Below, piece after piece: positions 254 through 3,184 of a stretch of 10,549 nt of DNA. Source of the stretch: Anaeromyxobacter dehalogenans (lineage in GTDB: Bacteria > UBP6 > JAFGXH01); the NCBI GenBank assembly GCA_020718465.1, contig DYRY01000013.1, positions 21,368-31,916 on the forward strand, read 5' to 3'. The notes under the pieces are model-generated. The model did no database searches and was not told where the DNA came from. It worked only from the letters and a program-made list of their open reading frames with translations. The number at the start of each line of letters is the position of its first letter. The first letter of the stretch is position 1. Made by a program: the position numbers and the translations under genes.

Positions 254-3184
254 ATGATTTGTCCTAATTGTAATCATAAAGAGGAGTACGATTTTTATAT
301 ATGTCCCAAATGTCAATACATTTTAGATGTTGATTCTGATGAAAGTGAAGATGAATTTGAAGATGAGCTTCAAAGTTTAATGAACTCTTCAAATGATGAA
401 CAAACACACAGAAATGATGATTTTACCTATCAACTTGATGTAAGTGAGCTTATTTTTGAAGAGGATCTTTCAATTAAAAGAAAAAATCCACTTTTAAAAG
501 AGAGTGATTATATTGAAAGTAGTGTTGATGAGATAATAAAAGATGTTCAAATTGATGACTCTAATCCAATTTTTGAATCAAAAGGAATGTCAAATAGAGT
601 TATAGGAAGAGATTCAGAGCTTTTTAAAATAAGACAAATCTATCAAGAGTCTAAAATAAATGCTCAAGTGTGTTCAATAATAGTTCTTGGTGATGCTGGT
701 GTTGGAAAAACCCGATTTGTTTCTGAATTTTTTAATAAACTTAAAGATAGTGAATCTTTAAAAATAGAGATTCAAGCAAAATTAAACTCAAAAAATGAGG
801 ACTACTCAATTTTTAAATCAATTTTACAAAAAATGGGTAAAATATTAGAGAGTGATTTAAAGGATATACAGATTCAAAAGCTTAAAATATTCCTGAAAGA
901 TAATGCTCCTTTTCACCTATATCATGAACTAAAAGGGGTTTTCCATCGCCTTTTAAAGTTAAAAACAACAGAAGATATTGAAAAAATGGATATTATGTCT
1001 TTTGATAGAATTTTAAAAAGAAGTTTTCGACATCTTTTTAGTCAATATACTTCAAAAAAATCTTTAATTATTGCAATTAAGGATATTCATAACTCTGATA
1101 TTCGTTCTATGGATATGATTGAGTATTTTTTATCTCTTCCAAATTTTAAAAATATCATATTTATTATGACATCAGAACCTCAAGAGAGAGTTCAAAGATT
1201 CTTAAAAGGGGAGGCTTATCGAAGATATTTTATTCAACTACAACCACTTGATTCAACAAATACTTTTATAATGGTTAAAGATATTTTAAAAGAGATTCCA
1301 AAAATAGACTCTCATACATTAGAGATGATTGCAAAAAATACAAAAGGACTCCCTTTTCATATAGAAGAGAGTATTAAATATTTTATGGATTCCAATGTTT
1401 TGCTTCAAAAAAAAGGAAAAGTTACTGAACTTGATGAGCAGGCATTAAGAAGAGTTAAAATTCCAACAACAATTGAGGAGAGAATTCAGGCAAAATTTGA
1501 TAGAATGGATCCTTTTCAGTATCTTTTATTACAACTAGCCTCTATTGCAGGTAAAGTTTTTTCTAAAAACTATCTTCAGGTTTTAATAAATGTTGATTTA
1601 ACAATTATTAAAAACCCAGAAAAAAAATCTTTATGGATGGTTTCAGATCTTGTTGAAAAAATAGATTTTACACTTGAAAATCTTATAACAAATGGAATTA
1701 TTATTAAACAAACATCTGGTAATAGTAGAAAAGAGTCAGAATTTAAATTTAATCATGATAGTGAACAACAATATTTATACAACTCTATTTCAGAAAAAGA
1801 GAAAAAACTGTATCACAACTATCTTGCACAATATCTTGAATCAAAATCAGACAACTCTGTTGAGGTTTTTATTGAGTTAATATCACATCAATATAAAAAT
1901 GCAGGTGAATTTTATAAATCAGCTAAATATTTTTTTATGGCTGGAGAGAGAGCTGAAGAGCGTTATGCAAATAGAAAAGCTATAGAGTATTATGAAGAGG
2001 CACTTAAAATTTTACCTCAAGAGAATGCTCTATTTAGAATTGAGATTCTTCATAATTTAGGTTCTCTTTATAATCTTATTGGTAAAATAGAGCCATCTAT
2101 TCAATCTTTTAAACAGATGGCTCAACTTGCAATAATTATAATTCACTACAATAAAGTTGGAGCTGCATATAATAAAATTGGTAGAATTTGTAGAGATCAA
2201 GGAGAGTATGAAAAGTCTGAAAGATACCTTCAACAAGCATATGATTACTTTAATATGGGTAGAGACAGAAAAGGAATTGCCTCAACCCAAGATGATATGG
2301 GACGTCTATATTGGCAAAAGGGACAATTTGATAAAGCTCTTCAACGTTATATGACATCCTTAGAGATAAGAAAAAAACTAAATGAAACAATCTCAATCGC
2401 TCTCTCTTTAAATAATATTGGGCTTTTATACTACTCACAGGGTTTTGTAAAAGAGGCAGAGGAGTATTTATTAGAAGCTTACAAACTTAGAAAAGAGAAT
2501 AAGGATAGAAAAGGAGAGATGGCATCACTTAATAATATGGCAACACTTACATATAATAAGGGTGATGACTCCCAAGCAAAAGTATTGTGGATGAAATCAT
2601 TAACAATTGCTGAAGAGATTGGTGATGTAAAATTTCAAGCTATATGTTTAAACAATTTAGGAGAACTATTTTTAGAGAATAATCAACTAAACAAAGCTGA
2701 AGATTACATTAAAAATGCACTAGAGATAGCTCTTGAAACCTCAAACAAACGAATTTTAGCCCATAATTACCTAAATTTAGGTGAACTCTTTTTTAAGCAG
2801 AGAGATATTCAAAAAGCTAAAATCTTTTTAAATCAGGCTTTAGATTTAGCAGATGAGATTGGAGATAGTCAAGTAAAGGGTAGAGTTTTATGTATTTTTG
2901 GTGATATTGAATCGGAAACTCTTTTTAATGCTGGAAAAGATGATAGTGATGGAGTTGAACCTGCAGAGAACTACTATTTACAAAGTTCTGATATTTTAAG
3001 AAAAGTATCTGAACCTCTTATGGCTCAAACAAATATCTCTTATGCTCAATATCTTTATGGAAAAGGAAAAAAAAGTAAAGCAAAAAAACTTCTTCTTCAA
3101 GCAGAGACTGTTTATGAAAACTATAATATGCAACTTAAACTATCAAATGTTAGAAGATTGAAAAAAGAACTAAATATTATTTAA
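254..3184 (+). CDS. STAND-class P-loop NTPase (AAA_16-like) with an N-terminal zinc ribbon and C-terminal TPR repeats, 976 aa from the ATG at 254
   Basis: RBS GGAGG lies at 245-249, 4 nt before ATG 254. The ORF-track start at 179 is a TTG with no RBS. Zinc ribbon CPNC..CPKC is at nt 260-313 and is followed by an acidic linker. The VIGRDSEL motif and Walker A GDAGVGKT (nt 689-712) match the AAA_16/STAND signature FVGRExEL...GEAGIGKT. Walker B-like LIIAIKD is at nt ~1070-1090. The arm-domain pattern FKFNHDSEQQYLYNS..LYHNYLAQYLE is typical of the AfsR/MalT-type STAND helical arm. About 8 TPR-like repeats follow at nt ~1900-2900 (for example AAYNKIGRICRDQGEYEKSERYLQQAYDYF, ISIALSLNNIGLLYYSQGFVKEAEEYLLEAYKL). 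Confidence 0.85.
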   Translation: MICPNCNHKEEYDFYICPKCQYILDVDSDESEDEFEDELQSLMNSSNDEQTHRNDDFTYQLDVSELIFEEDLSIKRKNPLLKESDYIESSVDEIIKDVQIDDSNPIFESKGMSNRVIGRDSELFKIRQIYQESKINAQVCSIIVLGDAGVGKTRFVSEFFNKLKDSESLKIEIQAKLNSKNEDYSIFKSILQKMGKILESDLKDIQIQKLKIFLKDNAPFHLYHELKGVFHRLLKLKTTEDIEKMDIMSFDRILKRSFRHLFSQYTSKKSLIIAIKDIHNSDIRSMDMIEYFLSLPNFKNIIFIMTSEPQERVQRFLKGEAYRRYFIQLQPLDSTNTFIMVKDILKEIPKIDSHTLEMIAKNTKGLPFHIEESIKYFMDSNVLLQKKGKVTELDEQALRRVKIPTTIEERIQAKFDRMDPFQYLLLQLASIAGKVFSKNYLQVLINVDLTIIKNPEKKSLWMVSDLVEKIDFTLENLITNGIIIKQTSGNSRKESEFKFNHDSEQQYLYNSISEKEKKLYHNYLAQYLESKSDNSVEVFIELISHQYKNAGEFYKSAKYFFMAGERAEERYANRKAIEYYEEALKILPQENALFRIEILHNLGSLYNLIGKIEPSIQSFKQMAQLAIIIIHYNKVGAAYNKIGRICRDQGEYEKSERYLQQAYDYFNMGRDRKGIASTQDDMGRLYWQKGQFDKALQRYMTSLEIRKKLNETISIALSLNNIGLLYYSQGFVKEAEEYLLEAYKLRKENKDRKGEMASLNNMATLTYNKGDDSQAKVLWMKSLTIAEEIGDVKFQAICLNNLGELFLENNQLNKAEDYIKNALEIALETSNKRILAHNYLNLGELFFKQRDIQKAKIFLNQALDLADEIGDSQVKGRVLCIFGDIESETLFNAGKDDSDGVEPAENYYLQSSDILRKVSEPLMAQTNISYAQYLYGKGKKSKAKKLLLQAETVYENYNMQLKLSNVRRLKKELNII

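Follow-up and report, generated by a model that had tools for sequence, protein, structure and literature searches.

A lineage-specific STAND-TPR protein with no recognizable effector domain and altered Walker B and sensor-1 residues

The gene and its product

We analyzed a 10,549-nucleotide window (the whole stretch of DNA examined here; GC content ~29%) of contig DYRY01000013.1 in assembly GCA_020718465.1. A gene near its 5' end encodes a STAND protein composed of a zinc ribbon, an acidic linker, a nucleotide-binding oligomerization domain (NOD) as well as an array of tetratricopeptide repeats (TPR) (Table 1). STAND proteins are usually pictured as a sensor, an ATPase switch and an effector. 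In contrast, the protein described here has no recognizable effector domain and carries what appears to be a charge-swapped Walker B/sensor-1 pair, yet it seems to evolve as slowly as a housekeeping GTPase.

The open reading frame (ORF) found mechanically opens at TTG 179, whereas all eight orthologs start with MICPNC. We considered positions 1-253 and 3185-3246 of the window together with locus L016 and with positions 9753-10000 and 12938-13129 of locus L002, which comes from a Zodletone metagenome-assembled genome (MAG) whose ortholog is 89% identical. For the STAND gene, the DNA similarity to this sister genome extended only from ~75 bp 5' of the ATG to the stop codon, and the flanking L002 DNA was otherwise unrelated. 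On the basis of the shared MICPNC start and these limits of similarity, ATG 254 was taken as the start codon and the promoter plus the coding sequence (CDS) as the conserved unit; the STAND gene has moved as such a promoter-plus-CDS unit. The promoter-like site upstream of the gene scored under the threshold of a consensus promoter scan, and the promoter and terminator sites returned by the consensus scan of the window were no more frequent than in shuffled sequence. No Rfam families or tRNAs were found in the window.

The protein opens with a four-cysteine zinc ribbon. Among the eight family members, 75% of residues 1-24 are invariant. The original prediction, which was made from the sequence alone, had described a double CxxC zinc ribbon; the four cysteines and the two CxxC knuckles are present, but they make up a single ribbon and not the 'double zinc ribbon' of Pfam. 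In a search with the isolated peptide, the matches to Pfam zinc-ribbon models stayed sub-threshold (E 6e-4 for Zn_Ribbon_TF and 2e-3 for DZR). The acidic stretch that had been pointed out after the ribbon (DSDESEDEFEDE, aa 27-38) was confirmed to lie within a negatively charged linker, whose net charge stays between −17 and −22 across the eight orthologs though merely 19% of its positions are invariant. The linker also contains a conserved short motif (YQxDxxELxFEED). A phmmer comparison of the N-terminal 110 residues with the 149 best remote relatives revealed nothing significant, and a regular-expression search of the remote relatives for ELxFEED gave no match. A stretch of relative P0175 (VDLVELSIDTSEEDINL) was considered as a counterpart of the linker motif, but the resemblance was loose, was judged too weak and was not used. 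The net charge of the NOD and TPR together (aa 110-976) is +14 to +31 in the family. No enzymatic or DNA-binding effector domain was found with Pfam, NCBIfam or PADLOC, which agrees with the earlier statement that no enzymatic effector can be recognized; outside the NOD and TPR, the protein carries only the 24-residue ribbon and the acidic disordered tail.

Pfam assigned AAA_16 to aa 115-304 with 46.5 bits (cut-off 32.6), and TPR_12 (143 bits) and TPR_MalT (98 bits) also scored over their cut-offs. The AlphaFold model of the full-length protein had a mean predicted local distance difference test (pLDDT) value of 77, with most of the NOD at 75-89 and most of the TPR at 83-95. It revealed, in order, five strands of the nucleotide-binding domain (NBD) as expected for an ASCE P-loop sheet, a helical domain, a winged-helix domain, an arm, and 22 helices (aa 536-975) that form 11 TPR hairpins. 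Eight of these hairpins lie in a regular 40-residue array, which corresponds to the approximately eight TPR units predicted earlier, but the total is 11. The Foldseek server identified PDB entry 6mfv, the STAND-TPR protein PH0952, as the best match (E 8e-15), and the nearest structural counterparts of the TPR superhelix were MalT domain III and peptide receptors. A PDB sequence search with aa 1-560 returned marginal P-loop matches only (ClpB and Rab7; E ≥ 0.1), and a separate AlphaFold prediction of the NOD alone (aa 101-560; 5 sequences) reached a pLDDT of 53 and was not used for the fold search. Taken together, the Pfam score and the AlphaFold and Foldseek results confirm the predicted AAA_16 STAND core with an NTPase fold. 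Of the features of such a core, we found the order of NBD, helical domain with GxP motif and winged helix, followed by the arm and the repeat sensor, as well as the Walker A motif; neither the sensor-1 Arg nor an acid at the proximal Walker B position is present.

Table 1. Features of the window, with amino acid (aa) ranges of the STAND protein where they apply.
Feature	Position	Strand	Remarks
3' end of cysteine-rich ORF	1-85	+	...NNDCAIGQSCEAIRCITSDGQQGSVCR*; extends beyond the window
Promoter-like TTGGTT-17 nt-TATAAT, extended −10 (TGc)	180-208	+	Read from sequence; conserved in L002
Shine-Dalgarno GGAGG	246-250	+	Precedes ATG 254; kept in sister genome L002
CDS of zinc-ribbon-NOD-TPR (STAND) protein	254-3184	+	976 aa; stop TAA 3182-3184 included
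Four-cysteine zinc ribbon, aa 1-24	254-325	+	C3, C6, C17 and C20 invariant 8/8
Disordered polyanionic linker, aa 25-109	326-580	+	Net charge −22; AlphaFold pLDDT <50 for aa 26-102
Conserved short motif YQLDVSELIFEED inside linker, aa 59-71	428-466	+	Y59, Q60, D62, L66, F68, E69, E70 and D71 invariant 8/8; translation checked
Nucleotide-binding domain of NOD, aa 110-330	581-1243	+	AAA_16; model strands aa 139-145, 168-174, 270-276, 301-307, 324-328
Walker A GDAGVGKT, aa 146-153	689-712	+	G149, G151, K152 and T153 invariant in family
Deviant Walker B LIIAIKD, aa 271-277	1064-1084	+	K276 (nt 1079-1081) in place of proximal acid
Sensor-1 site TSE, aa 306-308	1169-1177	+	E308 (nt 1175-1177) in place of Arg
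Helical domain with GxP (G365-L-P367), winged-helix domain and arm, aa 331-535	1244-1858	+	
TPR sensor, 11 helical hairpins, aa 536-976	1859-3181	+	
STAND-MVP spacer	3185-3246		62 bp; weak promoter-like TTGCAT-17-TAGAAT
MVP homolog, full-length	3247-5712	+	821 aa; MVP_shoulder E 1e-29, Vault_3, Band_7
FadL/TodX-type outer-membrane channel	5838-7247	+	
NagZ-like GH3 beta-N-acetylhexosaminidase	7373-8836	+	
AT-rich spacer	8837-9161		325 bp; GC ~0.21
MtaD/TRZ-ATZ-type amidohydrolase	9162-10499	+	

The NTPase active site and the probable loss of the effector domain

A word-indexed search of 5.8 billion proteins revealed a family of eight clusters that share this architecture at 53-100% identity. 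An exhaustive HMMER search with aa 1-560 as the query against 1.84 billion representatives found one family representative at E 1e-189, with the next match at E 1e-32, and yielded 13,142 remote relatives that can be aligned only from approximately aa 110 onward. To compare the active sites, we aligned the eight family NODs with 146 remote NODs; the register was fixed by H279, D282, S285 and P309, and the codons were checked. The Walker A motif was strongly conserved, with G149, G151 and K152 in 146/146 relatives and Ser or Thr at position 153 in 145/146, and the Walker A lysine that had been placed at nt 707-709 is exactly K152. G365 and P367 of the GxP motif were invariant even in distant relatives. 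The catalytic positions downstream of Walker A were different. Position 276 is K in all eight family members versus E or D in 144/146 relatives, and position 308, just after strand 4, is E in all eight members versus R in 139/146 relatives. Position 277 is D in seven of the eight members and N in P0006, which thus reads K-N and is without an acid at both Walker B positions. The STAND signature that had been called classical is therefore so in its Walker A part, but Walker B (LIIAIKD) and sensor-1 (TSE and not TxR) are altered.

PMC2323615 assigns Mg2+ coordination to the proximal Walker B Asp and gamma-phosphate sensing to the sensor-1 Arg that follows strand 4, and gives 51432 as the order of the strands in the sheet, so that strands 3 and 4 are adjacent. 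By inference from the alignment, E276/R308 in the relatives and K276/E308 in the family would represent a charge-swapped pair at neighboring strand ends.

The composition of the relatives indicated what may have been lost from the N-terminal region. In ~127 of the best 149 relatives, the NOD is immediately preceded by a class III cyclase-like domain, and 18 of the cyclase-bearing proteins have a protein kinase in addition. CxxC...CxxC ribbons are found at the N-terminus of ~26 of the 149 (P0013, for instance, opens with MMICPNCN), and in four of the 149 the zinc ribbons are joined directly to the NOD without a cyclase. Pfam searches of a sample of relatives confirmed Guanylate_cyc, Pkinase, DZR, AAA_16 and TPR. 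Because relatives with and without the cyclase carry such ribbons, the combination of zinc ribbon, AAA_16 and TPR is a recurrent layout, and the architecture cannot be called unusual, as it had been in the original prediction, since other lineages have it too, some with a cyclase in between and some without. The prediction had also held that a conserved N-terminal effector in homologs would point to truncation here or to a different logic. Such an effector, the class III cyclase and sometimes a kinase, does exist in the nearest outside relatives, but all eight close homologs also have no cyclase, which indicates that the loss is stable, and points to a different logic and not to a truncated gene. 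The distinctive trait is that all eight members lack the effector that normally separates ribbon from NOD. The sequence comparisons suggest that the protein descends from zinc-ribbon-cyclase-NOD-TPR signaling proteins through loss of the cyclase, and the family is confined to a deep-branching lineage of uncultured, low-GC bacteria that have an outer membrane.

To place the protein among known systems, we compared it with several characterized or annotated groups. The zinc-ribbon/DZR-class III cyclase-AAA_16-TPR proteins are homologous to it in NOD, arm and TPR over aa 110-976 (E 1e-24 to 1e-32; 22-31% identity); many begin with a like CxxC...CxxC ribbon, and the junction motif before the NOD (hF..G....GR[DE].EL) is common to both. 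Where these proteins have the cyclase and some also a kinase, the window protein has the 85-residue acidic disordered linker, and no Guanylate_cyc match was obtained for it. Kinase-cyclase fusions of the TIGR03903 'TOMM kinase/cyclase' type also belong to this group; with that model the window protein scored 115.5 bits (cut-off 705.75), over NOD and arm only. The mycobacterial cyclase-ATPase-helix-turn-helix proteins Rv0386 and Rv2488c are named here as kin by their description in the literature only. PH0952 from Pyrococcus horikoshii (PDB 6MFV) has at its N-terminus an ArsR-like effector that binds DNA and is absent from the window protein, and Escherichia coli MalT ends in a LuxR-type helix-turn-helix, whereas the window protein is TPR to its last residue; identity to solved structures of the PH0952/MalT type is only ~12-15%. 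The N-terminal SARP region of AfsR and other SARP-NOD-TPR proteins (OmpR-type DNA-binding plus BTAD) was not found by Pfam in the window protein, and model NF053617 (cut-off 1430) reached 104 bits, with a match limited to the TPR. The protein is thus without the defining effector of each named subfamily, be it the cyclase, the SARP region, the LuxR helix-turn-helix or the effector of the antiviral Avs proteins. It appears to represent an effector-less, catalytically remodeled subfamily of AAA_16-type STAND-TPR proteins, whose architecture in itself is not unique.

Close parallels were found in four cyclase-less DZR-AAA_16-TPR proteins from metagenomes (P0159, P0178, P0194 and P0273), which have one or more ribbons fused to the NOD and a TPR tail, as the window protein does. 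In these proteins the sensor-1 Arg is likewise lost (N, A, N and Q, respectively), and the sensor-1 segment of the first three (hhFhLTWNPEE type) resembles IIFIMTSEPQE of the family. They differ in that they carry two to four ribbons, lack the acidic linker and keep E/D-D at Walker B; their identity to the window protein is ~23-25%, with its N-terminal 110 residues unmatched. In the whole alignment the sensor-1 Arg is absent from seven of the 146 remote NODs, and six of these seven belong to cyclase-less proteins (the same four, in which zinc ribbons are fused straight to the NOD, together with P0175 and P0195). That the sensor-1 Arg is also gone from other cyclase-less relatives hints that effector loss and decay of the ATPase site may go together.

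From these results, we favor, with moderate confidence, a reading in which the protein is a lineage-specific, effector-less AAA_16-type STAND-TPR member, related to MalT and PH0952, that would work as a hydrolysis-poor scaffold or slow switch. Judging from its active-site residues, the NOD probably binds nucleotide, while hydrolysis would be poor or nil and canonical gamma-phosphate sensing lost or rewired. The nucleotide-loaded NOD would then act as a scaffold or slow switch and not as a cycling ATPase, the TPR superhelix would bind a conserved endogenous peptide or protein, and the zinc ribbon together with the acidic tail and its YQxDxxELxFEED motif would be the output or autoregulatory module. 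This module may work by protein-protein contact, either with a basic partner or with the net-positive NOD and TPR of the same protein. The nearest mechanistic template is the resting state of TPR-STAND proteins, in which the NBD is clamped by the arm and the sensor (PMC6468293). Several points weigh against a hydrolysis-poor scaffold. D277, which is kept in seven of the eight members, could coordinate Mg2+, and the K276-E308 pair could be a structurally neutral salt bridge that replaces the E/R pair and leaves the ATPase active. Additionally, the alignment behind the full-length AlphaFold model was shallow (14 sequences), the model showed no confident docking of the linker on TPR or NOD, and the association between cyclase loss and sensor-1 loss (Fisher p 2e-5) is overstated because the sequences are few and several are related to one another.

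The first two of these points are also the core of the best-placed alternative, a canonical active STAND switch, which we nevertheless regard as unlikely. In such a switch, a TPR ligand would bring about ADP-to-ATP exchange, the NOD would oligomerize and the clustered ribbons would signal, with K276/E308 as a neutral pair and D277 as the Walker B acid. The conservation of Walker A, GxP and D277 and the resemblance of the NOD-arm-TPR fold to PH0952 and MalT are in accordance with this mechanism, which matches that described for STAND proteins in general (PMC6468293), and some NLRs hydrolyze ATP despite modified Walker B boxes (PMC2323615). However, positions 276 and 308 are among the most conserved catalytic positions in the 146 relatives, P0006 is without any Walker B acid, and the sensor-1 Arg was lost in parallel in other cyclase-less relatives.

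An extension of the scaffold reading, which we put forward only tentatively and think more doubtful than the reading itself, is that the family and the other cyclase-less zinc-ribbon-NOD-TPR proteins are STAND 'pseudo-switches', in which effector loss is accompanied by decay or rewiring of the ATPase site, with Walker B Glu changed to Lys and sensor-1 Arg to Glu as a charge-swapped pair, and the protein turns into a nucleotide-loaded scaffold that does not cycle and has a core housekeeping role, under slow evolution, in a deep-branching lineage. The zinc ribbon and the polyanionic tail would then be the sole output.

The ribbon also raises the question of transcriptional regulation. The protein might be an activator or repressor of the MalT/AfsR kind that has a ribbon in place of the helix-turn-helix, with ribbon and acidic tail touching RNA polymerase or DNA. 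The best-studied bacterial STAND-TPR proteins (MalT, AfsR and PH0952) are shown or predicted transcription factors, the top Pfam match of the isolated ribbon, although sub-threshold, is the TFIIB-type Zn_Ribbon_TF mentioned above, and the gene is single-copy with ordinary chromosomal genes alongside. Against this, many unrelated ribbon models scored like that sub-threshold match, the net charge of the tail (−22) argues against direct DNA binding, and no conserved target operon adjoins the gene. We therefore consider a role in transcription improbable.

Genomic context and rate of evolution

The gene directly downstream of the STAND gene encodes a full-length homolog of the major vault protein (MVP), and bacterial MVPs have already been described (bioRxiv 10.1101/872010). 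The original prediction had named this protein the obvious partner, with a ligand-triggered output of the STAND protein acting on the MVP-like protein, for example in the assembly of a vault-like particle. The two genes do share a strand, and the 62 bp that separate them contain no predicted terminator, so that read-through transcription is possible in this genome, and the same STAND and MVP protein pair is recorded on a second, 31.9-kb contig. The window also matches contig CCZJPT010000341 (GCA_973787025.1), which carries the STAND, MVP-like, FadL-like outer-membrane, NagZ-like and amidohydrolase genes. In other genomes, however, the pairing did not recur. The 89% ortholog lies downstream of rplU-rpmA-obg, with a glyoxalase gene after it, the 64% ortholog is followed by an unknown gene and then FlgD, and the 55% clade lies between mfd on one side and DUF72, a 161-aa ORF and a histidine kinase on the other, so that no neighboring gene is conserved across these loci. 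The obg gene of the window's own genome is on a different contig with other genes after it.

The MVP homologs gave the same result from the other side. More than 6,700 were found in Desulfobacterales, Anaerolineae, Bacteroidia, Riflebacteria and other groups, at 60-66% identity to the window MVP and with varying neighbors; since the best non-self match is 66%, no ortholog from the sister MAG appears among them. Three homologs examined in other bacteria had unrelated neighbors, none of them a STAND gene, while the context of a further homolog, P0019, was uninformative because it lies on a short contig of an unrelated assembly. DNA similarity to the sister genome stops at the STAND stop codon, and owing to the weak promoter-like site in the spacer (Table 1) the MVP gene may have its own promoter. 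Adjacency was thus confined to this genome, and neither conserved adjacency nor co-occurrence, as expected of a two-gene system, was found. We regard coupling of the two proteins as very unlikely, and the comparison of loci suggests that the MVP gene is a chance neighbor of the STAND gene. The higher GC content of the MVP gene (0.33 vs 0.28) raised the possibility of recent horizontal import, which was rejected, as its GC3 (0.168) is the same as that of the neighboring genes (0.128-0.166).

The FadL/TodX-type channel, NagZ-like and amidohydrolase genes farther downstream are ordinary metabolic genes, and the channel indicates a host with an outer membrane. At locus L002, a Cation_efflux and Band_7 (SPFH) fusion is encoded at 15276-16841, three genes 3' of the STAND ortholog; Band_7 is also matched by the MVP, which is probably a coincidence.

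To estimate how rapidly the STAND protein evolves, we compared its identities to the orthologs (89/64/55%) with those of Obg (88/~64/60%). The Obg at 60% comes from the same JGI sample as a 55% STAND protein, whereas the ~64% Obg matches were not assigned to a genome. Homologs of the sister-MAG Obg were found at 88% identity in the window's own assembly, then at ~58-64%, and then at 57% or less in named phyla, with 52-58% as the closest placement to any of them. By this sequence measure, the divergence of the STAND protein is about as slow as that of Obg, a housekeeping GTPase. Within the protein, 53-56% of the TPR positions are invariant, which is above the NOD and below the zinc ribbon, and the arm and linker are lowest.

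These data bear on the antiviral Avs proteins, to which the STAND protein had been likened and with which it shares the general layout of a STAND NTPase and a C-terminal TPR-type sensor. PADLOC gave no match to an Avs or other specific defense model, only to generic TPR models, and the direct neighbors of the orthologs are ordinary chromosomal genes (obg, mfd, glyoxalase and DUF72). At locus L015, PBECR3, RhuM and WYL genes (525-3910) lie ~4-7 kb upstream of one 55% ortholog, past mfd, and have the look of a mobile or defense islet; L004 does not have them at the equivalent position, and they are hence not tied to the STAND gene. The slow evolution of the sensor, the ordinary flanking genes and the lack of a defense-model match together argue against an arms-race sensor and favor a conserved endogenous partner. 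Least likely of all, therefore, is an Avs-like sensor whose TPR recognizes a phage protein. Several Avs families do combine STAND with TPR (PMC13601566), and one ortholog lies ~5 kb from the RhuM, WYL and PBECR3 genes, but no nuclease, protease, TIR or other effector was found by Pfam or NCBIfam, there is no defense island directly beside the gene, and the TPR, far from diversifying rapidly, is the most conserved large domain of a protein that evolves at the rate of Obg.

Implications for STAND proteins

In practical terms, annotation should neither assign the MVP gene to a STAND-controlled system nor list the STAND protein among antiviral Avs candidates. Specialists would find only two features noteworthy, the site with swapped charges and the way it goes with effector loss, and neither opens a major question. 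If the scaffold reading is correct, it would hint that the loss of an effector is tied to catalytic decay, and the family would be a natural example of a STAND core that has become a scaffold, which would be relevant to the mechanism of STAND proteins, NLRs and MalT.

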